Shown here piece by piece: positions 13,365 through 35,217 of a stretch of DNA of 64,000 nt. Made by a program: the position numbers and the translations under genes. The stretch spans positions 259,616 through 323,615 of the forward strand of contig JAJPHZ010000016.1 in the NCBI GenBank assembly GCA_021325025.1, in the 5' to 3' direction. Positions within the stretch are counted from its first letter, which is position 1. The number at the start of each line of letters is the position of its first letter. Below the pieces are notes generated by a model. The model saw only the letters and a program-made list of their open reading frames with translations. It had not been told where the DNA came from and did no database searches. The DNA comes from Pseudomonadota bacterium. GTDB taxonomy: Bacteria; Desulfobacterota; Binatia; Binatales; Binataceae.

Positions 13365-13539
13365 CTGACGATCAGAGCATCCGCAAAGACGGCTTGCGTG
13401 CCGCGCAGGGTCAGTGTCCCCGATCCAAAACCAGGGCCGTTTTGGGCCGGTGCGAGTCCGGCAGGCATGATAGGCTTAGATGGCTTGGGTGGTTAGCGGA
13501 CGCCTTGCAAATGCGGGGTCTCGGAGAGATACTGCGCCC

Positions 13540-15327
13540 ATGCCGTTAGCCGCATCCGGTCGCGCCTGGCTCAAACCGAGCGGAAAGGCCGCGCTGCCTG
13601 CTGGCGCGCCGGCCTCGGCCAGCGACTCAGCATCGGGCCAGCAAGGTTCGTCAGGCGAAGCGCAGCAGCTTGCCCAGCGCGAGGCGGACTTCTGTCTTGG
13701 CTACGGCCTGTATTGGCTGGAGAATGGCGAGGGGGCCAGCTTCTGCTGGTCGCGCCGTTTCTTCGGCTTTTATCTCGATCTGGATCAGATCCGGGAATTC
13801 GAACTGGAGTTCGAATCGGCCCAGGAAACCACGTTGACTTTCTATTCCGACAGGACGGAAGTGGCCGCCGTCAACTTGGGTCCGGGGCGGCAGTCGGCCA
13901 CGTTCAGGGTTCCCGCCGAAAGCCGCAAGTATCGGATCTGGCATGCGGGTTTCAGGGTTGGGGATACGTGGCAGCCGGCATCCGATCCGAGAAGACTGGG
14001 CATCAAATGGTACGGGATGCGAGTGCGCACCGGCAGCGAAATTATTCACTACAGCGCGAGTGTGTATTCGCAAAATGGCGCCAAGACGGATTGGCTTCGC
14101 CTGGACGATTATTTTCGGCTGCATGGGAACACGGCGCACGACCTGCGGCGCAATGCGCGGCTCAACGTCAAGGAACGAAGGGCGGAAACCCAGGAAGTCG
14201 TATCCACGCCGCTGCGTCTTTACATGGAGCTTGCGTGGCTATGCAATATACGATGTCCGAGCTGCTTCCAGGCGTATGTGCCGAACAATCTGCGCAAGGA
14301 GGCGACTCATTTCATGTCGCCTCATGTGTTTCGCGAAGCCGCCGAGAAGCTGTTTCCGGGAGCCGCGATGGTATGGTACAGCGGCAACGGCGAGACGCTG
14401 CTTCATCCCAACATCGATACCATTTTGCGCACCGCACTGGATTTCAAGTTCGTTCCGGCGCTGCTGACTAACGGCACGCTGTTCACCGAACATAACATGA
14501 GACTGCTGGTCGAGGGCGGGTTTTTCCTGAGCATCTCGATTGACAGCCCCTATGAAAAGGATTTCGAGCGGCTGCGCGCCGGCGCCCGGTTTAGCAAGCT
14601 CGTGGGCGCGCTTGAGTATTTCCGCACCCTGCAACGGCAAATCAAAAACAAGCGTTTTCATATTCGGATCCAGTGTGTGGCGCAGCAATCAAATCTGGAT
14701 CAGGTCGTGGATTTAGTCAAATGGGGGGCGAGCTACGGCGCACGGGAAATACAGTTCCTGCCCATTCACAATTTCGGTCATCATTCCGAGTATATAGAGC
14801 AGGCGATGCTGTATCATACGCCCGAGCGGGTAAACAGCCGGATGCTGGAGGCGGTGCGGACGGGGACGAAGCTTGGCGTAAGGGTACGGCCCGTTCCTCC
14901 CCTGAATCCGGGGCCTGCCCTGACGCGCGAATTCCAGGCGGCCGCCGATGAAAACATCTACGCCACGCGGCGCCTCGACGATCTTTACGATCTGGCGCTC
15001 AATATGCCCGAACATCCCGCTAACAATCCCGACGGGCGATGCAGCTTGGCGTGGTCGGAGTGTTTTATTTGCGCGGACGGAAAAGTCGCGCCCTGCTGCA
15101 TCGACCTGACTCAGACCACGGTCGGCAACCTTTACGACGACGATTTCTGGACCATCTGGAACGGTCCCGCCATGAAGATGTGGCGTCAGACGGTCAACCA
15201 CGGGCCGCGTGGCATCTGCAGTTTCGGAACCTGTGTGTTTCGCCGTTCCGCGCCGGTGGACAAGAGCCAGATATCCAGAAAACTAACGCATCGTATGCGG
15301 CATTGGGTTCGATCATTCAGACATTAA
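13540..15327 (+). CDS. Radical SAM/SPASM(twitch) protein with an N-terminal beta-sandwich domain
   Basis: CNIRCPSC (CX3CX2C), GNGETLLHP, LTNG; C-terminal CSLAW..GKVAPCC..GNL..IWNG..C..C; start 13540 or 13480. Confidence 0.9.
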   Translation: MPLAASGRAWLKPSGKAALPAGAPASASDSASGQQGSSGEAQQLAQREADFCLGYGLYWLENGEGASFCWSRRFFGFYLDLDQIREFELEFESAQETTLTFYSDRTEVAAVNLGPGRQSATFRVPAESRKYRIWHAGFRVGDTWQPASDPRRLGIKWYGMRVRTGSEIIHYSASVYSQNGAKTDWLRLDDYFRLHGNTAHDLRRNARLNVKERRAETQEVVSTPLRLYMELAWLCNIRCPSCFQAYVPNNLRKEATHFMSPHVFREAAEKLFPGAAMVWYSGNGETLLHPNIDTILRTALDFKFVPALLTNGTLFTEHNMRLLVEGGFFLSISIDSPYEKDFERLRAGARFSKLVGALEYFRTLQRQIKNKRFHIRIQCVAQQSNLDQVVDLVKWGASYGAREIQFLPIHNFGHHSEYIEQAMLYHTPERVNSRMLEAVRTGTKLGVRVRPVPPLNPGPALTREFQAAADENIYATRRLDDLYDLALNMPEHPANNPDGRCSLAWSECFICADGKVAPCCIDLTQTTVGNLYDDDFWTIWNGPAMKMWRQTVNHGPRGICSFGTCVFRRSAPVDKSQISRKLTHRMRHWVRSFRH

Positions 15328-20921: not shown

Positions 20922-22163
20922 TCAGCGCTCTTCACCGGTCAGAAAAAGCGCCACCCCCAACAACGAAAACAGCAGATTGGGCAACCACGCCGCCAGCCAG
21001 GGCGGGATAATGGCGGAGCGCCCGAATGAAATCGTAAAGCCCAGCGTGATCCAATAGCCCAGTCCCAGGCCCAGCCCCAAAAGGAAGCCGCGTCCTGCGC
21101 TGGCTGCACGCGGCACCGGATCCAGGCTCAGCGCCAGCCCGCACAACACCATCACCAGGCACGACAGCGGCAACGCGTATTTCACGTCGCGATCGACCAG
21201 GTAAGAGCCGGGGTCCAGCCCGTTGCGGCGCAGTTTGGCGATATACTGGTCGAGTTCGGAAAGGCTGAACTCCTCGGGAGTGAGAATCGCAAAGGAGAAA
21301 TCGCCGGGCTTGGCGTCGAGGTGAAAATTTCCCGCCTGCGCCGCCGCCAGCGCGCCGCGATGCTCCAGGTCCAGCCGCTTCAGACCGCTAAAGGTCCATC
21401 CCTGGCCGTTCCATTGCGCATGGTCAGCGCTATAGATTGCGCGCAGCGTATATTGAGGTCCGATTTGCAGGACGCGCACCCCGTCCAGCCGCTGATGGGT
21501 CGCGTCATAGCTTTTGGCGGCGACAAAACCGCCGCGGATGCGCAGCCAGTTTTGCGCGTTGTACACGAACCGCGGCTGGTTGTGGATCACGCCGTCGAGC
21601 AGGTATTTGGAGCGCCGCGTCGCGGCGGGCACGATGGTTTCGTTCAGCCCGAAGGTTACCGCCGACAGCGCCGCTGCGAGCAGCAGCAGTGGCATCGCGA
21701 TCCCCATTCGGCTAATTCCCAGGCCCTGGAGTGCCAGCAGTTCGCCGTTGCGATTGAGCATCGCCAACCCCAACAGTACTCCTGCCAGAGCGGCGACCGG
21801 AATCAGTTGAGTGGTCATCAAGGGCAGTTTGAGCACCAGATACTCAATGCCGGCCGGGCGAAACAAGCCGTACGCCATCAGGTCGTCGAACTTGTCGATA
21901 AAGGAGGCCAGCAGGTCGATTACGATAAAGGCGATCAGCGCACCCAGGAAGGCTTCGCCGAACATCCGCACCACCATCCAGGCCGCGGTCGGCGGCAGAC
22001 GAAAGCGTTTGCGCCGGCGCACCGGCGCCCCAACGCTGGCAGCGCCCAGCCGCCATGGCGGGGCACCCAACTCGATCGCCGAGGATTCGATTGCCGGCTT
22101 CAAACTTCCACCGCTGCGCGCCGGCCCGGGGCTGCCCGGCGCAGCCGCGCATGCGCCTGCCAT
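20922..22163 (-). CDS. LptF/LptG family LPS export permease (LptG-like)
   Basis: Three TM helices, NGELLALQGLGIS, periplasmic beta region, three TM helices ending PWLAAWLPN; start uncertain. Confidence 0.88.
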   Translation of the reverse strand: MAGACAAAPGSPGPARSGGSLKPAIESSAIELGAPPWRLGAASVGAPVRRRKRFRLPPTAAWMVVRMFGEAFLGALIAFIVIDLLASFIDKFDDLMAYGLFRPAGIEYLVLKLPLMTTQLIPVAALAGVLLGLAMLNRNGELLALQGLGISRMGIAMPLLLLAAALSAVTFGLNETIVPAATRRSKYLLDGVIHNQPRFVYNAQNWLRIRGGFVAAKSYDATHQRLDGVRVLQIGPQYTLRAIYSADHAQWNGQGWTFSGLKRLDLEHRGALAAAQAGNFHLDAKPGDFSFAILTPEEFSLSELDQYIAKLRRNGLDPGSYLVDRDVKYALPLSCLVMVLCGLALSLDPVPRAASAGRGFLLGLGLGLGYWITLGFTISFGRSAIIPPWLAAWLPNLLFSLLGVALFLTGEER

Positions 22164-22308: not shown

Positions 22309-23439
22309 ATGAAGCTGCTGTTGATTTCCGGCGCGCGCATCGTGGGCGGGGCGGAACGAGTCACGCTGCAACTGGGTGCGGAACTGATGGCGCGCGGCTA
22401 TCAGGTGGAGGCGCTGTGCCCGTCGGCCGGCCAATGGCGCACCGCGCTGACCCGCGCCGGAATTGTGGCGCATCCCGCGCCCATCGGCGGAGCGCTCAAC
22501 TTTCTGACCTCATTCGTAATCGCGCAAGCGGCCGGCACCTTCCGTCCCGACCTTCTGATGGTGACGACCAGCGATGAATGGGTGTGGGCGTGTTTGACGC
22601 CGCGCCGCGCCTGCGCGCCGCGCCTGGTTCTGGTCAGGCATATGGGATTGCCGCTTGCATTGCGGGTGCGGCGGCTGGCGGGATGGCGCGCCGACGCGAT
22701 CGTGGCGGTCAGCCACAGCGTGCGCCAGAGCCTGCTGGCCGGCTCCGCGATCGCACCCGGCAAAGTGCGCGTAATCCCCAACGCGGTCCGCTTTGCGATC
22801 AATTCCAGGGTTCCCGATCCGCTCCAGCGCAGGCTTGCCAGAACGTCGCTGGGCCTGCCCGAGGGCGGCCGATGGATTGGCTTTTTGGGCGGCATCAACC
22901 TGGGCAAGGGAATCGAAGATGTGATGGTGGCGGCGGGGCGTGCCAATCGAATGCTGGGCGATGTGCATCTGCTGGTGTGCGGCAGCAAAGATCTCCGGCA
23001 AAGGACGCCGGATTGCGGCGAGTTGGCGCGCCGCTGCGGGATTGAGGAAATCGTGCACTACATGGGCCAACTCGATGACGTGATTCCGGCGATTACCGCG
23101 TGCGATGTGCTGGCCATCGCGACGCATCGCGCGCTGCGCGAGGGGTTGGCGCAAAGCGCGCTCGACGCGATGGCGTGCGGGACGCCGATTGCCGCCTACG
23201 CGCTGGAGGGCGTGATCGACGCGGTGGGCGAAACCGACGCCGCGGCGGTGCTGGCCCGCCCCGACGACGTCGCAGACCTGGGCGCCGCGATCATCGGCCT
23301 GCTGAGCAATCCCGAACTTGCGGCCTCGATCGCCCGGCGCGGCCTCGATCGCGCCCGAGCCGAGTTTGAACCCGCGCAGATGGCCGACCGTTATGAGCAA
23401 CTGTTTGGCGCGCTGACCGCGGACCGGGCCGGCGACTAG
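22309..23439 (+). CDS. GT4 glycosyltransferase
   Basis: GGAER, GINLGKG and EGLAQSALDAMACG motifs. Confidence 0.88.
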   Translation: MKLLLISGARIVGGAERVTLQLGAELMARGYQVEALCPSAGQWRTALTRAGIVAHPAPIGGALNFLTSFVIAQAAGTFRPDLLMVTTSDEWVWACLTPRRACAPRLVLVRHMGLPLALRVRRLAGWRADAIVAVSHSVRQSLLAGSAIAPGKVRVIPNAVRFAINSRVPDPLQRRLARTSLGLPEGGRWIGFLGGINLGKGIEDVMVAAGRANRMLGDVHLLVCGSKDLRQRTPDCGELARRCGIEEIVHYMGQLDDVIPAITACDVLAIATHRALREGLAQSALDAMACGTPIAAYALEGVIDAVGETDAAAVLARPDDVADLGAAIIGLLSNPELAASIARRGLDRARAEFEPAQMADRYEQLFGALTADRAGD

Positions 23440-25733
23440 GACCAGCCCGGCTTGGGTGGCGTTTCGACCGGACTAAGCTGTTCGGCAAACAATTCACGAA
23501 ACGCGGCGCAGCCGGCAAGCAACTCGGCGGCTGAACCCTCGGCGATGATCATGCCGTCATGCAGCATCGCCACACGCGCAAAGCGGCTGACGGTGGCCAG
23601 CCGGTGCGCGATCACGATTACCGTGCGCCGCTCCAGCCACGGCTTGAGATTAGCGAAGATAGTCCGTTCGGTGTCGGAATCCAGCGCGCTGGTGGCTTCG
23701 TCGAGCACCAGCAGGGCGGGGTCGCGGGCGATGGTGCGCGCCAGCGCGATACGCTGGCGTTGGCCGCCCGACAGGTTGCGTCCCGCTTCGGCCAGATAGG
23801 TGTCGAGCCCGCGCGCCATCGACGCGACGTACCCCTCCAGGCCGGCCAGCATCACTGCCTCATCGATGCGCCGCCGCGGCGCGTCCCAGGCGCCATAGCG
23901 GATGTTGTCGAGCAGCGAGCCGCTGAAGATGAAGGGGTCCTGCTCGGCCACACACACCGCGCGGCGCAAGTCGGGGATGCGCAACTCGGCCAGGTCCTGG
24001 CCGTCGAGCAGGATGCGCCCGGCCTGGGGCTCCACGAATCGCAGCAGCAGGTTGGCAACAGTGCTCTTGCCCGCCCCGCTGGCACCGACCAGCGCAATCG
24101 TCTCGCGCGGTGCGAGGCTGAGGGTGAAATCGGTCAGCACCGGCGTGTGGTCGCCGAAGCCCAACCGGACGCATTCGAAACGCAGTTCCCCGCGCACCGG
24201 CTTGGTCAGCGCGATCCACCCGTCGCGCTCGGCGGGCGGCAAATCGATAATCTCGTACACGCGCACAGCGCAGGCGATCGCGCGCTGCGACATGCTGTGC
24301 ACCTCGCTCAGCCGCCGCAGTGGCTCCACGGTCTGCACCGCATACAGGCAAAAGGCCAACAAGCCGCCGGCAGTAGCGGCTCCGGCCGACACCAGGCGGC
24401 TGCCGTACCATACCACCGTCAACAGGCCGGCGGCGGCGATGAGCCATACCGAGGAGATCAACGCCGCTGACCACAATTCGCTGCGCAGCACCTGGCGGCG
24501 CCAGGCGATATCTCCAGCAACGAAGCGCTGATTTTCCATCGGCTCGGCGCCGAAACCCTTGATGGTGGTAAGCCCGTGAAGCTGCTCGTTGAGCACGGCG
24601 CCCAATTGCCCGGCGGCCTGCTGCGCCGCAGCGCCCCATTTGCGCACCTGCCCGCCCAGACGCGCCAGCGGCAGGGCGACCGCCGGCACCACCACCCCGG
24701 TGATCAGCGCCAGGCGCCAGTTGAGCCGAAACAGCATCGCAATCGCGCCGATCACGACCAGCGTCTCACCCACGCCGCGCCGCAGGATCTCGCGCACGAA
24801 TTCCGACAGCGCGCCGGCGTCATTAAACATGCGCGACATCAGGTCGCCGGTGGCAAATCCGCGCGCGACCCTAAGGTCGGTGGCCAGCAGCCGCTCTTGG
24901 GCGCGGTCGCGCAGCGACTGCACCAGGCGCAGATCGATGCTGCGCAAAGAGTAGCGCGAGAAGAAGATTCCGCACACCATCGCCAGCGCGGTCAACGCCG
25001 CACGTATCAGCAGATGCGACATCTGCGCGCGGTCGCCGGTGACCAGCGGCCCCTCGGTCCACAGCTTGGCGATCCACGTCAGGTAAAGCTGGGCGCCCCC
25101 CAGCATCGCCAGGCTGAGGAAGACCATCGCCAGATGGGCCCGCAGGCGCATGCAATCGCGCAGCAGGCGCAAGAAAATTTGGGCCGAATCCTGCTCCGAG
25201 CGCAGCTCGACGTCGCCCAGACGCGGCACGCGCGCCGCCGCCGAGCGCGCGATGCGCTTCCAATGGCCCACCGTGTCGGCGTACAGCCGGCGCGCATCCC
25301 TGCGGCCCTGCGGCTCGCGCGCCGCACGCGCCGTCACCGCGGCGATCTGACGCATCTTGTGCCGGAACTGACGCCACTGGTCGGCGAGCAGGCGGCGCAG
25401 CGGCCACAATTCCACCGGTATGCGCTGAACACCCAAAGCCCGGCAGGCACGATAGCGCTTGTGACCGTCGGCGATTACAAAACGCGAACCCAATTTGACC
25501 ACGCAGACGGGTGGAAACCGCTCGCCGCGCGCCATCGCCTGGCGATACTCCTCGATGCGTTCGGGCGCGTGCGTGGTGGTGAAAGGATCGACGACGCGCG
25601 CCGCGGCAACGATATGGACGGGGAAGTGCGCCCGCGACGCATCGAAACATGCGGGCGTTTGTGCAACGTCGTCCGATGGTTTCAATGAGCCCGCCACTGA
25701 TATCCCGCCAGCCTCAAGGCATCCGGCGTTCAA
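23436..25733 (-). CDS. ParB/Srx-like N-terminal domain fused to an MsbA-like ABC half-transporter
   Basis: N-terminal FPPVCVV..FVIADGHKRY; TM domain; GASGAGKST, LSGGQRQR, LDEATSALD and IAHRL; one uninterrupted frame; start uncertain. Confidence 0.88.
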   Translation of the reverse strand: MNAGCLEAGGISVAGSLKPSDDVAQTPACFDASRAHFPVHIVAAARVVDPFTTTHAPERIEEYRQAMARGERFPPVCVVKLGSRFVIADGHKRYRACRALGVQRIPVELWPLRRLLADQWRQFRHKMRQIAAVTARAAREPQGRRDARRLYADTVGHWKRIARSAAARVPRLGDVELRSEQDSAQIFLRLLRDCMRLRAHLAMVFLSLAMLGGAQLYLTWIAKLWTEGPLVTGDRAQMSHLLIRAALTALAMVCGIFFSRYSLRSIDLRLVQSLRDRAQERLLATDLRVARGFATGDLMSRMFNDAGALSEFVREILRRGVGETLVVIGAIAMLFRLNWRLALITGVVVPAVALPLARLGGQVRKWGAAAQQAAGQLGAVLNEQLHGLTTIKGFGAEPMENQRFVAGDIAWRRQVLRSELWSAALISSVWLIAAAGLLTVVWYGSRLVSAGAATAGGLLAFCLYAVQTVEPLRRLSEVHSMSQRAIACAVRVYEIIDLPPAERDGWIALTKPVRGELRFECVRLGFGDHTPVLTDFTLSLAPRETIALVGASGAGKSTVANLLLRFVEPQAGRILLDGQDLAELRIPDLRRAVCVAEQDPFIFSGSLLDNIRYGAWDAPRRRIDEAVMLAGLEGYVASMARGLDTYLAEAGRNLSGGQRQRIALARTIARDPALLVLDEATSALDSDTERTIFANLKPWLERRTVIVIAHRLATVSRFARVAMLHDGMIIAEGSAAELLAGCAAFRELFAEQLSPVETPPKPGWS

Positions 25734-25825
25734 GTCTACCCGGAACCGGGCGGCAAAACACGCAACCAGCCGGCTGACGAGTGAGCCGCCTGCACGCAGA
25801 GGGCGTCAGCCCTGCTCCTCCTCCT

Positions 25826-27337
25826 TCATTTAGGCGGAGGCGGAGTGTAAATGCGGCGCGCGAAAGCGTGGGCCGCTTTGAGCACCGCGGCGTCCTCGCC
25901 CAGGCGGCCGACCAGCATCATGCCGACCGGCAATCCCGCCGAGATCGCGCAGGGCAGGCTGATTGCCGGATGGCCGGTCAGGTCGAACTGGCAGGTGTTG
26001 TCGGCCACCGCGAAAGCAGCGCGGGCGTCGGCGCCATTGCCGGGGCGCGGCAGAGGAATCGACTTCATCGGCGTGGTCGGCATCACCAGCAGATCCCACC
26101 GGGAAAGCGCGTCGTCGTAAGCGGCGCGCAAGGTGCGGGTGAGGTTGCGGGCCTTGGCGTAGTAGCGTCCGTGATACGACTGGCGCATGTACTGGCCGAT
26201 CAGCAGCGTGTACTTGATCTGGTCGGGCAGATCGTCGGCGCGGGCCAGGCGCCCGCGCGCAAAAGCGTCGATCAGGCTTACGTTGTGATGGCCGTCCATC
26301 GCGGCGCCAACACTGTTGGCCGCAACCACCGCGCTGATGCCTTCGTTGCCGATCGCGCCGAAGATTGCCGTGCCGATCCGATGCCACGGCACGCAAACCC
26401 TTCCCACTGCGCAGCCCAGCCGCTCAAAGGCCTGCCCCGCTTCCCGCACCGCCTCGTCGACGTCCGTCTCAGCGTGGCTGGTGCCGAAGCCCTCTTCCAG
26501 CAGGCCCAGCCGCAGGCCTTTGACGTCGCCGTCCAGCGCCCTGCTGTAGGGTTGTGCAACCAGTCGATTGATTGCCTGGCGGACGTCAAACCCGTCGGGC
26601 CCGGCGATTGCCTCCAGCAACAGCGCCACATCCTCGACGTTGCCTGCCATCGGCCCCAGATGGTCCAGATTGGGATCAAGCGAGACCGCGCCCGTGTAGG
26701 GAACCAGCCCATAGCTGGGCTTAAGCCCGTAAACTCCGCACCAGCTCGCCGGAATCCGGATCGATCCACCCTGGTCCCCGCCGATTGCCATGTCCACCTC
26801 GCCCGCGGCGAGCAGCGCGGCGCTGCCACCCGAGGAGCCGCCCGCATGGCGCGTCAAGTCGTAGGGATTGAGAATCGGGCCGGTGTCGGCGTTGAGATCG
26901 AAACACAGCCGCCCGCACGCGGCTTTGCCCACGATCCTCCCACCGGCGTCGAGGATGCGCGAAACCACCGTTGCGTCGGCTTCGGGGACGTAGCCCTCCA
27001 GTACGCTGCTGCCGTTCATCATCGGAACGCCGGCGACGCAAACGTTGTCCTTGATCGCGACCGTCTTGCCGGCCAGCAACCCGCCCGATGCGCCGGCAAT
27101 GTCGGTGCGCCAGTACCATGCGCCGAGCCGATTCTCCTCGGGCCGCGCGCGCCATCCGGGCGTCCGTGGATAGCGCACCGGCAGGGCTGGCTCGGGCAGT
27201 TCGTCGATCCGCCCGTACGCCTCCATCGCGTCCGCGGACATCGCGCGAAACCGCTCGAGTTGTTCTGAGGTGAGGTTGAGGTTGAAGCCCGACGCGATAC
27301 GGGCGAGCTGCTGCGTGGTCGGCGGTTTGGGCGTCAT
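25826..27337 (-). CDS. Amidase signature family enzyme
   Basis: AIKD (Lys), GGSSGGS and GDQGGSIRIPA triad motifs. Confidence 0.93.
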   Translation of the reverse strand: MTPKPPTTQQLARIASGFNLNLTSEQLERFRAMSADAMEAYGRIDELPEPALPVRYPRTPGWRARPEENRLGAWYWRTDIAGASGGLLAGKTVAIKDNVCVAGVPMMNGSSVLEGYVPEADATVVSRILDAGGRIVGKAACGRLCFDLNADTGPILNPYDLTRHAGGSSGGSAALLAAGEVDMAIGGDQGGSIRIPASWCGVYGLKPSYGLVPYTGAVSLDPNLDHLGPMAGNVEDVALLLEAIAGPDGFDVRQAINRLVAQPYSRALDGDVKGLRLGLLEEGFGTSHAETDVDEAVREAGQAFERLGCAVGRVCVPWHRIGTAIFGAIGNEGISAVVAANSVGAAMDGHHNVSLIDAFARGRLARADDLPDQIKYTLLIGQYMRQSYHGRYYAKARNLTRTLRAAYDDALSRWDLLVMPTTPMKSIPLPRPGNGADARAAFAVADNTCQFDLTGHPAISLPCAISAGLPVGMMLVGRLGEDAAVLKAAHAFARRIYTPPPPK

Positions 27338-27409: not shown

Positions 27410-28336
27410 TCAAACCAGCGCGCCGCCGGCGATCGCCTCGAGGATGCGCAGCGGACTCATTTCGGGCGCAATCAGCGACTCGAGCGGCACGAAGAACGTC
27501 TGCTCCAGCGCGTAGCGGCCCGACAGCACCGCATGAGGGACGGCATCGGTAAACGCGATCCAGGTCGAAGCGGGCGGAAATTCATGGCGCTGCTTGGAAC
27601 AATCGCGCTGAAAGGCCTGATTGTCTTTGAGATAGTCGTGAAAGCGCAGCGTGAAGCGGTCATAGCAAGAGCGTTGAACGAGCTTGATTCCCACACCGCG
27701 CAAGGCCGCCGACGCCGCATCCCCAAGCTGCCGCGTCAATCCGCGGCGGCGCGCGGTATCAGCGCCGAGGCCCGCCTCGCGCGCCATCCGCGCGGCCAAC
27801 TCCGCGAAGGTTTGCGAAGTGATCCATACGCGCGGCTCATCGGGATGGATGTTGGTGAAAAACCGCAGGATTCGCCGGCCGCGCGCGGGGCGTGTGGGAA
27901 ATGAATCGATGTGAATCAGATCGTTGCGCGAGCGGCCGTGCAGTTGGCGGCCGCGCTCCTCGATCGGTCTGAAGCTGGTGAGATCCGTTTGCAGGCCCGG
28001 CGCGTAAGGCGCCAGCAGTTCCATCGCCGCTGCGCGTACCGCTTCCGCGTAACTGCGCAGCACACGCTCAAGCGCTCGCGCGTCGGTGCCCGAACGGGAA
28101 AAACCGCGCACTCGGCCCGAGGAAGGTTCATAAGAGATGTTTTTTACAAACGCCGAGCCGCTCTGGCGCACCTGGGTGAGAAAGCGCCGGTCCTCCTCGC
28201 TTATAACGGGAAAATGCGGCAGCACCAGGATGTCACCGCGCTCCAGCCGATCGCAACACCATCGCGCGTGCTCAGCCGCCGCGCCCGGGTCACGCCATCC
28301 GCACTCGGTAAAACCGGCGATTTCGACCGCACCCAT
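27410..28336 (-). CDS. kdoO: Kdo hydroxylase family protein (KdoO-like)
   Basis: KNISY, SFRP, HIDSFPTRP..GRRILRFFTNI, FHDYLK and FTDAVPHAVLSG..LEQTF. Confidence 0.85.
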   Translation of the reverse strand: MGAVEIAGFTECGWRDPGAAAEHARWCCDRLERGDILVLPHFPVISEEDRRFLTQVRQSGSAFVKNISYEPSSGRVRGFSRSGTDARALERVLRSYAEAVRAAAMELLAPYAPGLQTDLTSFRPIEERGRQLHGRSRNDLIHIDSFPTRPARGRRILRFFTNIHPDEPRVWITSQTFAELAARMAREAGLGADTARRRGLTRQLGDAASAALRGVGIKLVQRSCYDRFTLRFHDYLKDNQAFQRDCSKQRHEFPPASTWIAFTDAVPHAVLSGRYALEQTFFVPLESLIAPEMSPLRILEAIAGGALV

Positions 28337-28387: not shown

Positions 28388-29461
28388 CTATCCAATCGCG
28401 CCCAGATTTGCGAGGGCGCTGAGCGCTGCCCGGGGCTCAATCGCGCGCAGGCATTGGTAATGGCCGAAGCGGCAGGTGCGCGCCAGGCACGGGCTGCATT
28501 CGATTGCCTTGTAGAGGATCGTGGTGCGCGGGCCAAGCGGGCCGGTGCGCGCCGGATTGGTCGAACCGAAGATGGCGACAGTTGGAATGCCCAGGGCGGA
28601 GGCCAGATGCGCCGCGCCGGAGTCGTTGCCGACAAAACCGTCGCATAACGACAGCAACGCCATCAACTCGCCGACATCGGTCTGCCCGGCAGCAACAATC
28701 GCATCGCACGAAGCGCTTGTTGCTATGGCCTCGCAGCGCGCGATGTCGCCCGCGCCGCCGACCAGCACCGCTTGCACGTCGCGCTGCGCCAGCGAGGAGA
28801 TCAGCTCTACGTAATGTTCCCGGGGCCATTCCTTGGCCGGTCCGTAAGCGGCGGCCGGCGCGACTGCCAGCAACTTGGAGCGCTCGTTGCGGCGGACTGC
28901 GAGCCATCGGCGCATCCGCTCCAGATGGTGCGGCGCAACCTCGGGGGCAATCTGTTTTGGATCCGATTCGACGCCGAGCGTGGCTTTCAACATCCCAAGC
29001 CAGTAATGGACCTGATGGCGCCGCATCAGTTGAGCGTCGGGCGTGACGCGCCTGGTCAGCATCCAGCCGCGGCCGTCGCGCGCAAAACCGGCGCGCACGG
29101 GGATGCCGGCCAGCGCCACGCGCAGGGCGGAGACGAAGCTGTTGGGCAGCACCACCGCCAGGTCAAAGCGCCGCGTGCGCAGTTGAGCGGCAGCGCGGAT
29201 TAATTCGACCGCGGCCAATCGTTTACCCCCGCGCCGCAGCGCGATCACCTCGTCCACCAGCGCGCTGCCATCGAAGAAGGCGGCCAAACGATAATCGACC
29301 AGCACCGCCAGGCGCGCGGCGGGAAAGGCGCGGCGCAGCGCCGCCAGCACCGGCAGGGTCATCACCAGGTCGCCCAGCCAGTTGACCTCGTGGACGAGAA
29401 TGCGCGACGGACCTGGGGCGCGCTTCAATGCGGTTTCCACCGGCGATGCATCCAGATCCAT
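28388..29461 (-). CDS. waaF: LPS heptosyltransferase II (GT9)
   Basis: NWLGD, LPNSFVSA, AYGPAKEWP, GNDSGAAHLA and CSPC motifs; start near 29461 inferred. Confidence 0.88.
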   Translation of the reverse strand: MDLDASPVETALKRAPGPSRILVHEVNWLGDLVMTLPVLAALRRAFPAARLAVLVDYRLAAFFDGSALVDEVIALRRGGKRLAAVELIRAAAQLRTRRFDLAVVLPNSFVSALRVALAGIPVRAGFARDGRGWMLTRRVTPDAQLMRRHQVHYWLGMLKATLGVESDPKQIAPEVAPHHLERMRRWLAVRRNERSKLLAVAPAAAYGPAKEWPREHYVELISSLAQRDVQAVLVGGAGDIARCEAIATSASCDAIVAAGQTDVGELMALLSLCDGFVGNDSGAAHLASALGIPTVAIFGSTNPARTGPLGPRTTILYKAIECSPCLARTCRFGHYQCLRAIEPRAALSALANLGAIG

Positions 29462-30627
29462 TGTTCGGGATGGCGCAGGATGATGCGTTCGAGCGCAGCG
29501 TTGTAAAGCCGGGTGTTGGCCGCGACAGTCTGCTCGGCGCCGCCGCTTTCCACCGTGGGCAGCGCTTGCTCGAAACGCAGGACGTGGCAGCCGTCGCGCT
29601 CGCGCCACAGCGCTGCGGGCACTACCGGCGCGCCGGTGCGTATGGCGATCAGCGCCAGGCTGCGGAAGGTCCACGCGGGCGCGCCGAAAAAATCCACCAG
29701 CACGCCGTCGCGCCCACCCGCATGCTGATCCATTATGAATACCACCGCGTCGCGCGCGGCCAGCCGCCGCAAAATCGTTTCAAGCGAACCGCGTTTGGGT
29801 AAGACTCCCAGGCCGCTGTTGCGCATCCGGCGCACCACCAGCCGCTCCAGGTAAAGGGGCAGCGGACGGCGCAGCACGTGGAAGCGCCCGCGCCATTGGG
29901 GGAATTTCTCCATCGCTGCGGGCAGCGCGACTTCCCAATTGCCGAAATGGCCCGCCAAGACCAGAACGCCGCGGCCCAGCTTGTAGGCGTCCAGAGCCGC
30001 CGCGACATTTTCCACGCGCACCGCGGGGCGGCGCGCCCACGGCATCAGGTTGCCGACGAATTCCGCCAGGGAGCGCGCCAGATGTCCATAAAAGGCCTGC
30101 GCCAGTGCAACGATCTGGTGATCGTCAAGGGTCGCACCGAAGGCGCGCCTGAGATTGGCGAGCACCACGCGGCGGCGCACCGGCAGGCAATAGTATATGA
30201 ACTTGCCCGCGGTGGGCGCAGCCAGCCGGCGCGGCTGACCGATCGCCATCGCGGTGGCGTGGGTGCCGTCGTGGCTGAGCGAGAGCGCAATATCGGCCAT
30301 CCAATGGCGCGCCATCGCGTCGGCGGCGCGCGCGGTGCAATTGACGCGCGGGGCGCCGTAGCCCTCGGAGAGGATTTCGAAGTCGCCGGCCTCCAACTCG
30401 CCCAAGGCCGTCTCGCGCGGGAAAAGTTTAAGGCAGGCTTCCTTGGCGGCAAAACGGGCCGCCAGGCGCGCCGCGTCGCGGCCCCGTGCCGCATCGTCCA
30501 GCTCGCGCTGGGAAAAGATGCGCAGCAAGTCCTGGCGCGGCGTTTCTTCCAGCAGCCGCCGCATGCGTGCGATTTCCACCAGATCGATGGCGGGGCGGCC
30601 GGCTGCCGATGTCTCAGGCGTGCTCAT
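29425..30627 (-). CDS. Fusion of holo-ACP synthase (AcpS) and a lipid A late acyltransferase (LpxL/HtrB family)
   Basis: IDLVE..RFAAKEA..LSLSH, then GHFGNWE, MDQH and PEQWIWMHRRWK; ATG overlaps the upstream TGA. Confidence 0.9.
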   Translation of the reverse strand: MSTPETSAAGRPAIDLVEIARMRRLLEETPRQDLLRIFSQRELDDAARGRDAARLAARFAAKEACLKLFPRETALGELEAGDFEILSEGYGAPRVNCTARAADAMARHWMADIALSLSHDGTHATAMAIGQPRRLAAPTAGKFIYYCLPVRRRVVLANLRRAFGATLDDHQIVALAQAFYGHLARSLAEFVGNLMPWARRPAVRVENVAAALDAYKLGRGVLVLAGHFGNWEVALPAAMEKFPQWRGRFHVLRRPLPLYLERLVVRRMRNSGLGVLPKRGSLETILRRLAARDAVVFIMDQHAGGRDGVLVDFFGAPAWTFRSLALIAIRTGAPVVPAALWRERDGCHVLRFEQALPTVESGGAEQTVAANTRLYNAALERIILRHPEQWIWMHRRWKPH

Positions 30628-31919
30628 GGCGTTGCATCGGGCGGTGCTTTGAGCAAAAGCGCGGTATTCATGCCGCCAAAACCGCGCCCCAGTACCAGCG
30701 CGATGTCGCCGTGCAGCGCCGTTGCCGAGGCGGAAACCGCCAGCGGCAGGCATTGCGGATCGGGGTCGCGCAGCGCGCCGATACCGGGCGCGGCGCCGTT
30801 GCGCAGGCATTCGAGCACCAGCACCGCCTCCAGCGCGCCCGCCGCCGCCATGGTGTGTCCCAAGGCCCACTTGAACGAAGTGACTGGCGGCATGTCGGCG
30901 CCGAATACTCGCCGGATGGCGTTGGCCTCGGACCGGTCGGAGTTGACGGTGCCGTTGCCGTGGGCGGCGATCATTGCGACATCGCGCGGAGTGATCCCGG
31001 CCGCCTCCAGCGCCATCTCCATCGCGCGCACCGCTCCGTCGCCATCAGCGCGAATCCCCAACACTCCGAGCGCCTCGGTGGTCACACCCGCCCCGATGAT
31101 AATTCCCAGCACCGGCGCATGGCGCTCCGCCGCCGCCGCCTGCGTCTCCAGCACCATCGCCGCCGCGCCCTCGCCCAACAGGCATCCGCTGCGGCCCGCG
31201 TCAAAGGGCCGCGTCGTATCGGCGGTCAGCAACCCCAGATGGTAGAGGTTGAGGATTGCTTCGGGCTCGATTGGCGAATCGTGTCCGACCGCGACCGCCC
31301 GGTCGGCGTCGCCCGTGCGCAGCGTCTCCATCGCCTCGATAATCGCCATGGTTGCGCTGACGCTGTGGTTGGTGATGCAGGAATTGGCGCCCTTGAAGCC
31401 GTAGGCGATTCCCAGGTAGCACAGCACGTTGTTGGGCAGCGCCTGCAGCAGCCAGGTGGGATTGACGCTTTCGCCCAGCTTCTGTCCGAAGACGCGCAGG
31501 TCGCCGCCGCCCGCTGCCATCGCGTTCAGAAAATCATACTGATAGTGATAGGCCACGCCGCCGCATCCGGTGAACACCGCGGTCCGCTCGTTGAATTCCA
31601 CCGCCTGCGCGCCGGGCAGCGCGGCGCGATACTCCAACATCGCCGAAGCCGTGACCGCGCGGCTGGCGGCATACAGGCCCAGCAGGTCGGTGCGGCGCAG
31701 GCGCTGCACCGACTTGAGCAGTCTGCGGTCATCGAAAATTGCACCGGCGTCGATCCGCTCGACGCCCGCGGCAAGCGGCGCAGGCCAGCCGGCCGAGTCC
31801 CACTGCCGCAGCGGCGCAAAGGCAGTGCGGCCCGCGCGCAGCGCCCGATAGATCTGTGCGGGCTCGCTGCCGAGCGCGCATATCGCTCCGATGCCGGTGA
31901 TTGCGACGGGCGCGCTCAT
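30624..31919 (-). CDS. Beta-ketoacyl synthase homolog with Ser at the catalytic Cys position
   Basis: VAITGIG, GEGAAA, AHGNGT, KWALGHT and GFGG motifs; TNHSVS replaces TACAS. Confidence 0.88.
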   Translation of the reverse strand: MSAPVAITGIGAICALGSEPAQIYRALRAGRTAFAPLRQWDSAGWPAPLAAGVERIDAGAIFDDRRLLKSVQRLRRTDLLGLYAASRAVTASAMLEYRAALPGAQAVEFNERTAVFTGCGGVAYHYQYDFLNAMAAGGGDLRVFGQKLGESVNPTWLLQALPNNVLCYLGIAYGFKGANSCITNHSVSATMAIIEAMETLRTGDADRAVAVGHDSPIEPEAILNLYHLGLLTADTTRPFDAGRSGCLLGEGAAAMVLETQAAAAERHAPVLGIIIGAGVTTEALGVLGIRADGDGAVRAMEMALEAAGITPRDVAMIAAHGNGTVNSDRSEANAIRRVFGADMPPVTSFKWALGHTMAAAGALEAVLVLECLRNGAAPGIGALRDPDPQCLPLAVSASATALHGDIALVLGRGFGGMNTALLLKAPPDATP

Positions 31920-33214
31920 GCGGCGACATCCTGCGGATTGCGCAAAACCAGGCAGCTATTGGAGCCGCCGAATCCGAATGAATTGGAGATGGCAAGGCCA
32001 ACCCGGCTTCGGCAGGCCACTTCGCGAACGAAATTGAGGTCGCATTGGGGATCGGGGTCGTCGAGGTTGGCGCTGATCGGCAGCGTCGAATGGTGGATTA
32101 CCAGCGCGCAAATCGCCGCCTCCACGGCGCCCGCACCGGCAATCAGATGGCCCATCAAGCTTTTGGTCGAACTGACTTTCACCTGCCGTGCATGCGCGCC
32201 GAACACCGCCTTGATCGCCGCACATTCGCTGCGGTCGTTCATGACCGTCGAGGTGCCATGGGCGTTGATGTAGCCGACTTCGTGCGGCTGCGCTCCGGCA
32301 TCCTGCAGCGCGGCGCGCATCGCCTGGATTGGACCGTCGCCCGACGGATGGGAATCGGTAATGCGGTAGCTGCTGAGCGAATTGCCGTCGCCGGCCAGCT
32401 CGGCGTAGATGCGCGCGCCGCGCCGGCGCGCCGCCTGCCATTCCTCCAGCACCATGAACCCGGCGCCCTCGCCCAGCACAAAACCATTGCGCGTGCGATC
32501 GAAGGGACGGCTGGCGCGGGTGGGCCGTTCGTTATCGGTGGACAACGCGCCGAGCAGGCTGAAGGCGGCCAGCCCGACGGGATTGATCATCGAGTCGAAG
32601 CCGCCGGTCAAAACAAAGTCGACGCTGGCGCGCCGAATCAGACGCATCGCCAGTCCGATCGCCTGGCCGCCCGACGCGCAGGCAGTATGGACCGAACCCG
32701 CGTAGCCGCGGATACCGAAGCGTTGTACCAGCAGCGCCAGTCCGGCGTTGGCCTGATTGCGCGCATAAGCGATCGGATCGGGGGTCGGCGCGCTGGGCGC
32801 GAACAGCAGACGCGATGCGAGTTCGCCGCCGGGCGCGAAGCGGCGCTGAAATTGCGCCAGTTCCTCGTACGCCACGCCCATCATCCCGCTGCCCGCAACG
32901 CAGCCCCAACGCTGCGCCGTCTGCGGCTGGGGGCCGACGCCCGCGTCTTGGATGGCTTCCTGCGCCGCCGCCAATGCGAAAAGGGCGTGGCGGGTCGCGA
33001 ACTTGAGCAGTTTGCGATGGCGGTCGTGAACGGGCGCAGCGAAATCTTTTACCTCGGCGGCGATCCGGACCGGGTAGCCGCCGGCGTCAAAGGCGCCGAT
33101 CGGAGCGATGCCGCTGCGGCCCGCGAGCAGCGCGTGCCAGGTCGTGGCGGTGCTGTTGCCCAGCGGTGTCACCAGGCCCAGGCCGGTAATTGCCACGCGC
33201 CGGCGTACTGGCAT
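31916..33214 (-). CDS. fabF: Beta-ketoacyl-ACP synthase II (FabF-like)
   Basis: TACASG, NAHGTST, KSLMGH and SNSFGFGG motifs; start at ATG 33214 or GTG 33220. Confidence 0.92.
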   Translation of the reverse strand: MPVRRRVAITGLGLVTPLGNSTATTWHALLAGRSGIAPIGAFDAGGYPVRIAAEVKDFAAPVHDRHRKLLKFATRHALFALAAAQEAIQDAGVGPQPQTAQRWGCVAGSGMMGVAYEELAQFQRRFAPGGELASRLLFAPSAPTPDPIAYARNQANAGLALLVQRFGIRGYAGSVHTACASGGQAIGLAMRLIRRASVDFVLTGGFDSMINPVGLAAFSLLGALSTDNERPTRASRPFDRTRNGFVLGEGAGFMVLEEWQAARRRGARIYAELAGDGNSLSSYRITDSHPSGDGPIQAMRAALQDAGAQPHEVGYINAHGTSTVMNDRSECAAIKAVFGAHARQVKVSSTKSLMGHLIAGAGAVEAAICALVIHHSTLPISANLDDPDPQCDLNFVREVACRSRVGLAISNSFGFGGSNSCLVLRNPQDVAA

Positions 33215-33216
33215 CG

Positions 33217-33642
33217 TCACGCGCCGCCCGCGCGCATGGCGCGGATTACCATCTTGCACATCGTTTCCACCGTAAACAGGGTCGGCACATCGGCAAGATT
33301 CATGTGCGGCCGGAAGCTTTGCGCCGGCACCTCGCTCAAGTACTCGCGCAGCCGCGCCAGCCCCGCCTCGGTCAGCACGCCGGCGGTTTCGAATTGCGCC
33401 TGGGGCAGGTCGCCGCGCGCGTCCTCGACGATGCGTCCGCGCGGAATCTGAATTTTGAATTCACGCTCCAGTCTGAATACCATGTCGAGCAGGTCGATCG
33501 ACTCCGCCTCCAAATCCGCAAACAGGCGGCTACTGAGGCGGACTTCCGCGGGGTCGCGCGCCAGCGCCTCGGCGATCACTCTGGCCACCTGCGGATAGAC
33601 GGCTTGGATTTCCTCTTTGCTGATCGCAACCGGCATACTCAC
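33217..33642 (-). CDS. Acyl carrier protein, long form with an insertion
   Basis: DLEAESIDLLDMVFRLEREF phosphopantetheine motif; C-terminal FTVETM; about 140 aa. Confidence 0.88.
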   Translation of the reverse strand: MSMPVAISKEEIQAVYPQVARVIAEALARDPAEVRLSSRLFADLEAESIDLLDMVFRLEREFKIQIPRGRIVEDARGDLPQAQFETAGVLTEAGLARLREYLSEVPAQSFRPHMNLADVPTLFTVETMCKMVIRAMRAGGA

Positions 33643-34415
33643 TCCATCTTGAAGCCGCCGTCCACGTAAATGATTTGACCGGTGATGTAATCGGCAAAGC
33701 GCGAGGCCAAAAACACCACCGCGTAAGCAACCTCGATGGGCTGTCCGTAGCGGCGCAACAGGATTCGCGCCAGCGCCTGCTCGCCCGCGGCGTCGCGGAT
33801 AGGCTTTGACATCGTGGTTTCGATCAGGCCCGGCGCCACCGCGTTGACGGTGATTTTGCGCGGCGCCAACTCCACCGCCAGCGCTTTGGTAAAAGCGTTG
33901 ACCGCACCCTTGCTGGCGGCATAATTGGTCTGCCCGCGCCCCGCCATCTCGGCCGCCACCGAACTGATATTGACGATTTTTCCCGAGCGCTGCGTAATCA
34001 TGTGCGGAACCACGGCGCGCGTAATATTGAACACGCCGGTCACGTTGGTTTCCAGCACCGCGCCGACGTCAGCGGGCTCCAGCCACGGCAACAGATTGTC
34101 GCGGATGACAGCGCTGTTGTTGACCAGCACGTCGATACGGCCATGGCGCGCAACGGTGCGCTCCACTACCGCCGCGCAAGCGGCGGGGTCGCGCACGTCG
34201 GCCTGTTCGCCAAATGCGCTTTGCCCGCAGGCCTGGATTTGCGCCGCGACTTCGTCGGCTGCGGCGCGATCGGCGCGATACAGAAACGTCACCGCCGCCC
34301 CCTCGGCGGCAAAGGCCTGGACAATCGCGCGGCCGATGCCGCGGCTACCGCCGGTTACTATCACCGATTTGCCGGACAGGCCCGAATCGCCAAGCATACT
34401 GCGCCGCTCATCCAC
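33639..34415 (-). CDS. fabG: 3-oxoacyl-ACP reductase (FabG-like SDR)
   Basis: TGGSRGIG, NISS, GQTNYAASK and VAPGLIET motifs. Confidence 0.85.
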   Translation of the reverse strand: MDERRSMLGDSGLSGKSVIVTGGSRGIGRAIVQAFAAEGAAVTFLYRADRAAADEVAAQIQACGQSAFGEQADVRDPAACAAVVERTVARHGRIDVLVNNSAVIRDNLLPWLEPADVGAVLETNVTGVFNITRAVVPHMITQRSGKIVNISSVAAEMAGRGQTNYAASKGAVNAFTKALAVELAPRKITVNAVAPGLIETTMSKPIRDAAGEQALARILLRRYGQPIEVAYAVVFLASRFADYITGQIIYVDGGFKME

Positions 34416-35181
34416 TGATCGAAAATCCGCCGTCGACCACCAGGATATGGCCGGTGATCATCGCGGCTTCGGGCAGACATAGCAGAAAAACCGCATCCGC
34501 CACATGGCCGGGCAAAAGCGCCGGGCCCAGCGCGGCCCGTTCGGCGAACTCGCGCAGCATGCGCTCGCGCGCCGCAAACGCCTTGAGCGCGTCGGTGTCC
34601 ACCACCGCGGCGCTGACCGCGTTGACGCGGATGCCACGCGTGCGGCCCAACTCCATCGCCAGGCTGCGCACCAGGGCTTCCAGGGCGGCCTTGGAGGCGC
34701 CGATAAAGCCGTAATCGGGCAGCGCAAAGCGCGCGCCGAGGCTGGAGACCGCGATGATACGGCCGTCGTTGCCCATCAGCGGCGCGGCGTGCTGGGCTAG
34801 CAGGTTGAGCGCCAGAGCGTTGGTCTCCATGCACCAGCGCCAATGCTTGAGCGTCATGTCCAGGGTGGGCTTGAGCACTCCGCTGGCGGCATTGCTGACC
34901 ACGATGTCAAGACGGTTGAAGCAGGCGGAAAACTCGCCAAACAGTTCACCGACGCTTTGCGGATTGCCGACGTTGGCCGCGATTGGCACCGCGCGGCGCC
35001 CAAGCGCGGCGAGTTCGTCGCACAGCGCGCGCGCCTGGCCGTGAGCGTTGAAGTATACCGCCGCCACCTCGCAGCCGGCGGCGGCCAGCTTCAGTGTAAT
35101 CGCGCGGCCGATGCCGCGCGAAGCTCCGGTGACCAGCGCTACTTTGCCGGCCAACGGCGATGGTTCGGCGCTTTGCGGCAC
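34408..35181 (-). CDS. SDR enoyl-ACP reductase (FabL-like)
   Basis: TGASRGIG, SNAASGVLKP, YGFIGASKAALE (YX6K spacing) and VDTDAL. Confidence 0.82.
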   Translation of the reverse strand: MPQSAEPSPLAGKVALVTGASRGIGRAITLKLAAAGCEVAAVYFNAHGQARALCDELAALGRRAVPIAANVGNPQSVGELFGEFSACFNRLDIVVSNAASGVLKPTLDMTLKHWRWCMETNALALNLLAQHAAPLMGNDGRIIAVSSLGARFALPDYGFIGASKAALEALVRSLAMELGRTRGIRVNAVSAAVVDTDALKAFAARERMLREFAERAALGPALLPGHVADAVFLLCLPEAAMITGHILVVDGGFSISG

Positions 35182-35217
35182 GTCGCGCTCCCAGGTTGCA
35201 TCCGCAGCCGCGCGGCG

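Follow-up and report, generated by a model that had tools for sequence, protein, structure and literature searches.

Why would an ABC (ATP-binding cassette) exporter of the MsbA type carry an additional module ahead of its first transmembrane helix, and what could such a module do there? The question is raised by a reverse-strand gene in a 64,000-nucleotide stretch of DNA (hereafter the window) from a member of the Binataceae (Desulfobacterota; Binatia; Binatales), namely positions 259,616 to 323,615 of contig JAJPHZ010000016.1 in GenBank assembly GCA_021325025.1 (C43:259616-323615 of the genome labelled G000 in our set). An earlier note on this DNA had described the gene product as a ParB/Srx-fold domain fused to an MsbA-like flippase, and had proposed the domain as a possible non-orthologous stand-in for the lipid A 4'-kinase LpxK. 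The analysis presented here leads to a different answer. We consider it highly probable that the fusion is real and conserved, that its N-terminal part is an independent module, that the module belongs with one clade of partner exporters existing beside MsbA and LpxK, and that the setting is that of envelope glycolipids. Judging from sequence comparisons, we read the module as a putative accessory subunit, dependent on nucleotide, of an exporter dedicated to glycolipids.

The fusion gene and its conservation

As the earlier note had stated, the gene is covered by a single open reading frame (ORF), at 23436..25733 (-), which stays open up to a TTG at 25733 (765 residues). The most likely start is the GTG at 25697, which would give a gene at 23436..25697 (-) of 753 residues, since the database copy of the fusion protein has 753 residues and the homologues begin at this point (MAGSLKPS...). 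The N-terminal peptide quoted in the note was recovered in the translation at 25431-25562, inside the approximate interval of 25400-25570 given for it. The exporter part comprises a transmembrane domain (TMD) of the type IV, ABCB-like kind at 24321..25130 (-), matching PF00664 (ABC_membrane) over residues 202-471 with an E value of 1.2e-33, and a nucleotide-binding domain (NBD) at 23688..24137 (-), matching PF00005 (ABC_tran) over residues 533-682 with an E value of 5.7e-29. Six hydrophobic segments were found in the TMD, as expected for a six-helix domain, while the Walker A, signature, Walker B and H-loop motifs of the NBD are intact and their columns invariant among 25 aligned homologues. 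The exporter is intact, as had been claimed, and a Pfam scan of the fusion protein likewise agreed with the claimed absence of a helix-turn-helix (HTH), no HTH family being detected. The best NCBIfam model for the exporter was that of MsbA (TIGR02203), which scored 381.2 bits, below its 602-bit cut-off, and whose alignment begins at residue 187. A short connector at 25179..25229 (-) joins the module to the first helix of the exporter; its alignment columns are gappy and unconserved, and these approximately 15-20 residues ahead of the helix are the sole variable stretch there in the homologue alignment.

The N-terminal part is common to 32 database proteins at 45-100% identity, 30 of them 724-795 residues long. 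The fusion was also present in all six other genomes of the same genus, with open frames of 754-795 residues, and in one other genus of the family (764 residues), so that the architecture, which the earlier note had advised looking for in independent genomes, was readily found. Comparison of public contigs with positions 24900-25750 revealed one contig from an independent study that spans 24900-25622 with two differing letters and no gaps, crossing the junction whose coverage the note had wanted checked, and a contig from another run that spans 25014-25299. Two apparent joints in the same comparison were disregarded, since the other contigs involved matched over just 21-22 letters on one side. 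The conservation of the fusion in homologues and the independent contig across its junction make an assembly artefact or an untranslated leader very unlikely.

On such an artefactual explanation, which is the least probable of those weighed here, the exporter would be made from an internal start behind a non-coding upstream part, or the two parts would have been joined by mis-assembly. It can point to two loci (L023 and L027) in which module and exporter occupy two ORFs in different frames, but the split form is nested within the fused clade, the split exporter (L027, also seen as L023) standing among fused forms with branch support of 99/96. Moreover, the upstream part is conserved as a protein down to 45% identity and holds invariant residues, which is not the unconserved leader that the earlier note had considered, and the in-frame start codons available near the beginning of the exporter would all truncate its first helix.

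The split loci belong to one Binataceae lineage. In them, a module of 175 residues ending in a stop codon and an exporter of 586 residues with its own ATG lie 120 bases apart (1384-1911 and 2031-3395 in L023; 1703-2230 and 2350-4110 in L027), an arrangement that, going by the tree, could be a secondary fission or a frameshift.

Structure of the N-terminal module and its relation to the ParB/Srx fold

An AlphaFold2 model of the module, built from a 37-sequence alignment, was confident (pLDDT 93.6, pTM 0.79) and displayed a strand at residues 15-19, a helix at 33-44, strands at 52-57 and 60-65, a helix at 67-75 and a strand at 80-85, after which come two long helices (88-113 and 117-144). The model, together with weak and consistent matches to ParB_N, SbnI, sulfiredoxin and SerK, suggests a ParB/Srx-like core at model residues 15-85 (25407..25619, -). 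Within this core the motif DGHKR (25455..25469, -) lies at a strand-to-helix junction, where strand 60-65 ends and helix 67-75 begins, and aligns with G-E-R-R of the ParB phosphate motif GERRxRA and with GCHR of sulfiredoxin. The D, G and R of the motif and the A that follows are invariant in the 37 family members, and hhalign aligns three of the invariant residues, G66, R69 and A72, with the GxxRxxA of ParB, placing DGHKRYRA of the module on AGERRLRA of the genome's own ParB; the sulfiredoxin counterpart in the family-profile comparison is GGxHRY.

The polar residues D25, Y39, Q98, H133 and R136 are also conserved in the module family. The last three are invariant, rank among the best-conserved positions of the entire N-terminal part, and fall in the helical hairpin formed by the two long helices (25230..25400, -), for which the close homologues have the motif D-T-x-G-H-W-x-R. 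The last helix is amphipathic, with a mean hydrophobic moment of 0.50 and a mean hydrophobicity of 0.01 over the 37 sequences. The earlier note had taken this stretch for a basic helical linker; it is instead a conserved hairpin within the module itself.

Searches with the module against sequences of the Protein Data Bank (PDB) gave SbnI (6nr6) at an E value of 1.4e-4 and ParB (7bnr) at 2.5e-4. With the profile of the 37-sequence family, the best solved relatives were SbnI (9.8e-5), sulfiredoxin (approximately 0.1, across the whole core at module residues 19-89) and SerK (0.6), and hhalign placed module residues 15-89 on residues 30-113 of the genome's own ParB with an E value of 0.0012. The module may thus be described as ParB/Srx-like on weak but consistent evidence: the part of the earlier fold assignment that stands is a likeness repeated over several searches, while the sequence support stays weak and under the family cut-offs. 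A D-Q-x-x-Q stretch of the module is not claimed here as the ParB hydrolysis box, as the hhalign alignment ends before it, at module residue 89.

Occurrence of the module as an independent unit

The 178-residue N-terminal part, searched against 1.84 billion representative proteins, returned 165 matches at E<=0.001, 81 of them at E<=1e-10. Among the 81 strong matches, 65 were at most 212 residues long (some of these being fragments) and 16 had at least 242 residues. The typical match is a protein of 145-190 residues that covers approximately residues 15-157 of the query; among the standalone proteins inspected, eleven end soon after the last helix with a basic tail. No transmembrane segment was predicted in the standalone modules, no Pfam family matched them at E<=0.001, and five of the six tested matched no NCBIfam family at E<=0.01, one standalone module being annotated in one source merely as 'hypothetical protein'. 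The longer matches include ABC fusions like that of the window (P0037, P0059, P0060 and P0062, as well as P0035 and P0041, which are truncated). In others the module is joined to different partners: by Pfam, a PMT/PMT_2 GT-C transferase (a C-type glycosyltransferase, GT) of the ArnT kind in P0045, a lipid A late-acyltransferase family domain (Lip_A_acyltrans, LpxL-like) in P0078, a GT2 in P0069 and a GT1/GT4 in P0068, whereas in P0084 a kinase of the Kdo/WaaP family (Kdo, 3-deoxy-D-manno-oct-2-ulosonic acid) carries the module at its C-terminus. For some longer matches the extra part had no Pfam match.

The genomic setting was examined in 29 GC-rich loci, taken from one genome per species and located with the single pattern [VLI]ADGHKR[LY]xA derived from a 12-sequence alignment. 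By taxon label, 21 of these loci are from Acidobacteriota (Holophagales, Thermoanaerobaculia, Solibacteraceae, Terriglobia and unclassified), three from Binatia, two from Chromatiaceae and three from Proteobacteria/Deltaproteobacteria, and 16 hold a module ORF of at most 175 residues ending in a stop codon. Most often the module occurs on its own, as a protein of about 150 residues in Acidobacteriota and Binatia, and a single copy was present per genome examined. Across 301 genomes sampled evenly from the phylum, the full-length module was matched in no genome other than that of the window; the remaining 21 matches were confined to the generic core. An apparent C-terminal placement of the module in long ORFs (L026, L040, L046, L049 and others) was set aside as over-extension, the extensions having no Pfam match and that of L026 overlapping, by frame arithmetic, the ABC gene in another frame. 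Taken together, the comparisons show the predicted module to be an independent unit, which may stand alone, lie adjacent to its partner in either gene order, or be fused.

Pairing with one clade of exporters

Pairing was counted in the 29 loci by tblastn with the ABC part from the window, together with ORFs chosen with the guidance of GC content at third codon positions. An exporter 39-81% identical to this ABC part, on the same strand and either fused or adjacent to the module, was present in 17 loci, with a gap of at most about 100 bases except in L039, where an O-antigen-ligase-like gene lies between. The two genes are fused in four of the 17 loci (L024, L025, L028, L031), the exporter precedes the module in three (L026, L029, L030), and the module precedes the exporter in the other ten, one of which (L032) is cut by the end of the contig. 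In both Chromatiaceae loci the exporter directly downstream of the module is 33% identical, bringing the paired total to 19 of 29. In four of five whole acidobacterial genomes, one ABC protein was 49-51% identical to that of the window (521-536 bits), the next best reaching at most 35%; this protein scored 339-362 bits against TIGR02203, compared to 547-567 bits for another gene of the same genomes.

A maximum-likelihood tree of 52 hand-picked exporters (IQ-TREE, LG+G4), with paralogues from five genomes as the only outgroups, united the 26 exporters that are fused and the 13 that are adjacent or nearby in one clade with support of 100/100. The two Chromatiaceae exporters were sister to this partnered clade (93/89). 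A separate clade (99/93), itself sister to the partnered clade (88/86), held the probable MsbA genes of the genome under study and of the four acidobacterial genomes, and six other paralogues of the window's genome fell outside both. The tree and the searches thus show that the partner exporters form one clade, which exists in addition to a better MsbA candidate and to LpxK. In most lineages that have the module, it is a small protein of its own whose gene directly adjoins that of the exporter.

lpxK and the best MsbA candidate elsewhere in the genome

The proposal that the module replaces LpxK while attached to the cell's MsbA had two attractions: the window's own lipopolysaccharide (LPS) cluster has no lpxK, and the fold includes small-molecule kinases, as judged by PDB entry names and a published account (PMC5120207). 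As worded in the earlier note, the absence of the gene from the cluster was right for the ORFs scanned, none of those between 10.5 and 39.8 kb of the window being lpxK. It does not extend to the rest of the contig, as lpxK was located there at C43:227557-228534, with 286.7 bits against PF02606 (27-bit cut-off). Directly upstream of it on the same strand lie a Kdo transferase gene (kdtA) and then the best MsbA candidate of the genome (583 bits with TIGR02203), and this msbA-kdtA-lpxK row is about 55 kb from the fusion gene. In addition, lpxK was above the cut-off in all five other fusion-bearing Binataceae genomes and all four module-bearing acidobacterial genomes, and Pfam scans of the fusion protein gave no match to LpxK (PF02606). 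With TIGR02203 the fusion exporter ranks seventh among the ABCB-type genes of its genome, at 381 bits compared to 583 for the best, and on this comparison the fused ABC protein is a paralogue and not the genome's best MsbA candidate. Because lpxK is present in the genome itself and in all nine others tested, the module is most improbable as an LpxK stand-in, and that part of the earlier proposal was abandoned. The note's broader idea, of a nucleotide-binding ParB/Srx domain that would alter the lipid ahead of flipping or gate its transport, may still hold, with indirect support from the steady association of the module with one exporter clade and from its kept phosphate motif.

Two observations concern the lpxK genes themselves. 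An amidase fragment adjoins the lpxK row of the window's genome, and one acidobacterial genome with a full lpxK has a second lpxK-like stretch (G335:C1:2249-2996) in two pieces, one of which contains an in-frame TGA.

A possible role for the module in export

What, then, could the module contribute? An MsbA-like half-transporter with a module of approximately 150 residues at its N-terminus would constitute a two-part machine. Since the N-terminus of such ABC exporters lies in the cytoplasm, the module would be cytoplasmic as well; because the connector is short, it would sit at the cytoplasmic face of the membrane, beside the first helix of the exporter. There it would bind nucleotide phosphates at its GxxRxxA-type motif, as suggested by the invariance of these positions; to our knowledge, every characterised ParB/Srx-fold member binds nucleotides, which agrees with PMC12704722. 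The bound nucleotide would serve a step performed on lipid-linked cargo just before export. We tentatively favour phosphotransfer of the SbnI, SerK and sulfiredoxin kind to this cargo, because the solved structures closest to the family profile are those of phosphotransferases, the module lacks the clamp domains, and occasional fusions of this kind usually involve pathway enzymes.

The cargo could be a variant of lipid A/core, that is, an LPS precursor, or a polyprenyl-phosphate sugar donor flipped for periplasmic decoration, the latter being considered because GT2 and ArnT-like GT-C neighbours recur. Families specific to lipid A/core (LpxA, LpxB, Lip_A_acyltrans, KdtA, GT9, Kdo/WaaP kinase, KdoO, LptF/G and O-antigen-ligase-like) were present in 14 of the 29 loci and PMT/PMT_2 GT-C transferases in eight, and 23 of the loci had at least one link in the form of a lipid A/core family, a GT-C or the ABC pairing. 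Such genes are expected to be rare near a random gene.

Instead of modifying the cargo, the module could act as a nucleotide gate. ABCB half-transporters work as homodimers, and the two modules of such a dimer would close on a nucleoside triphosphate (NTP), as ParB does with CTP, and lock or release the transport cycle, so that export would follow a second nucleotide signal. Several findings fit such a gate, namely the invariance of the ParB-type GxxRxxA positions, the comparable matches to ParB clamps and SbnI in single-sequence searches, the subunit-like co-evolution of the module with one exporter clade, and its single copy per genome. Such a gate is nearly as likely as phosphotransfer, but there are points against it: the module has neither an HTH nor a C-terminal dimerisation domain, the ParB hydrolysis box beyond the core did not align, and the fusions to an acyltransferase, GT-C, GT2/GT4 and a kinase are harder to explain by gating of an ABC dimer.

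Non-catalytic recognition of the cargo is improbable, though it would fit the predicted position of the module beside the membrane and its attachment, N-terminal or C-terminal, to enzymes that differ in chemistry but have envelope glycolipids as their common substrates. The phosphate pocket would in this case bind a phosphorylated head group or a nucleotide-like cap and hand the substrate to the attached enzyme or exporter, much as a carbohydrate-binding module does. Most copies are standalone, however, the conservation of D25, Y39, Q98, H133 and R136 exceeds the usual need of a simple binding module, and the characterised members of the fold that we know of bind nucleotides.

Phosphotransfer by a ParB/Srx-like module must itself be set against a number of observations that weigh on the other side. 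With regard to the fold, Pfam ParB_N (PF02195) matched the module at an E value of 0.0059 and 17.1 bits, below the 26.3-bit gathering cut-off, the NCBIfam models that responded (ParB, SbnI, Noc and SerK) were each far below cut-off, with 21.4 bits against 350 for SbnI and 15.8 against 380 for SerK, and hhalign gave the match of the module to ParB a probability of only 19%. The kinase branch is not clearly favoured either, since single-sequence searches matched ParB clamps about as well as SbnI, and the tight pairing with one exporter clade suits a regulatory subunit as well as an enzyme. No missing kinase step points to the module, the window's genome having three Kdo/WaaP-family kinases. As for the setting, ten of the 29 loci have no ABC gene beside the module (in L044 the contig ends right after the module, and another genome has a matching exporter 22 kb away on the same contig), and the loci are a biased sample, drawn as they were with one pattern. 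The neighbourhood counts, too, are raw counts made without a random-locus control.

Comparison with known systems

MsbA (TIGR02203; 8gk7, 7met) has the same half-transporter layout as the fusion exporter, with one TMD and one NBD in a protein of the homodimer type, and is its closest bacterial solved relative (275 bits). The fusion exporter is likewise encoded in an LPS cluster and its clade is sister to that of the probable MsbA proteins; it differs in scoring under the 602-bit cut-off, in coexisting with the MsbA candidate as a paralogue, and in carrying or pairing with a ParB/Srx-like module. The free serine kinases SbnI and SerK (6nr6, 5ujd, 5x0e) have a D-G-x-H/K-R motif at the same position as the module and, like it, a core followed by a helical part, with a weak collinear match into the last helix. 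However, they are about 250 residues long compared to approximately 150 for the module, whose context is that of envelope lipid and not of amino-acid or siderophore metabolism. Sulfiredoxin, which consists of one ParB/Srx domain of about 110 residues and performs ATP phosphotransfer, aligns over the module core by profile, while the module has a His at the position of the catalytic Cys and an extra helical hairpin.

The CTPase clamps of the ParB type (ParB/Spo0J, Noc, KorB) share with the module the positions of the GxxRxxA phosphate motif. They differ from it in possessing an HTH, a C-terminal dimerisation domain and a DNA context, where the module continues into a two-helix hairpin and then the ABC TMD. 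N-terminal cytoplasmic exporter domains that recognise or process cargo before export are exemplified by the C39 peptidase of peptidase-containing ABC transporters and the C39-like domain of HlyB; the fold of the module is unrelated to theirs, and their cargo is protein and not a lipid-linked glycan. Noc couples CTP binding to membrane binding, and neither sequence nor AlphaFold3 predicts which nucleotide ParB-fold proteins bind, according to a 2025 survey of ParB-fold fusions (PMC12704722).

The passages of that survey consulted here list HTH, HNH, methyltransferase, CBS and other partners, without an ABC or LPS partner among them, and six of its supplement files contain neither PF00664 nor PF00005 (PMC12704722). 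Full-text literature searches turned up no account of a ParB-like domain attached to an ABC exporter or taking part in LPS assembly. What appears to be new here is an MsbA-like exporter with a conserved, unannotated accessory module. Work on MsbA-type flippases usually treats them as self-sufficient machines, and the ParB/Srx fold has been met in DNA segregation, in redox repair and in a handful of kinases acting on small molecules. More speculatively, Acidobacteriota and Binatia may possess a two-component export system in which a ParB/Srx-fold enzyme or switch acts as a second nucleotide checkpoint, phosphorylating or licensing the cargo at flipping; if this were true, it would be the first ParB-fold protein in membrane lipid transport. 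Conserved as it is in these two soil phyla, which are abundant and for the most part uncultured, the pairing points to a step in outer-membrane assembly that has gone unannotated, and places genes labelled 'ABC transporter' or 'hypothetical protein' in one system. As a small soluble protein, the module is a concrete candidate for a role in NTP binding, as a kinase or in gating.

Gene neighbourhood

The fusion gene is the last of a same-strand run which, by Pfam and NCBIfam, contains a heptosyltransferase II-like gene (28388-29674, -), the Kdo hydroxylase gene kdoO (27410-28336, -) and, between kdoO and the fusion, an amidase gene (25826-27337, -; NF005565, 653.8 bits). In L025, kdoO is followed directly by the fusion, the amidase gene being absent between them. 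Farther upstream, at 29425-37732 (-), the run holds the genome's second Kdo-transferase-like gene, lpxB, two genes each for short-chain dehydrogenases and ketoacyl synthases, and a gene of the lipid A acyltransferase family. With its fatty-acid-synthesis genes next to an LpxL-like gene, this stretch is reminiscent of the rhizobial cluster that provides lipid A with very-long-chain acyl groups. Downstream of the fusion lie a convergent GT4 glycosyltransferase gene (22309-23439, +) and lptG (20922-22163, -), both assigned by Pfam and NCBIfam. The genome's own canonical ParB is encoded elsewhere.

Three of the 29 loci share the order PMT_2 GT-C, module, exporter (L040, 2642-8219; L041, 3585-8231; L049, 3860-8234), the GT-C gene being directly upstream of the other two. 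This pattern occurs in Thermoanaerobaculia and Holophagales, with FG-GAP repeat genes and lpxB downstream. In the window, a radical SAM/SPASM-domain gene (13480-15327, +) stands at the edge of the glycosyltransferase block, and the fusion ORF and the convergent GT4 ORF share four bases at their 3' ends (23436-23439).

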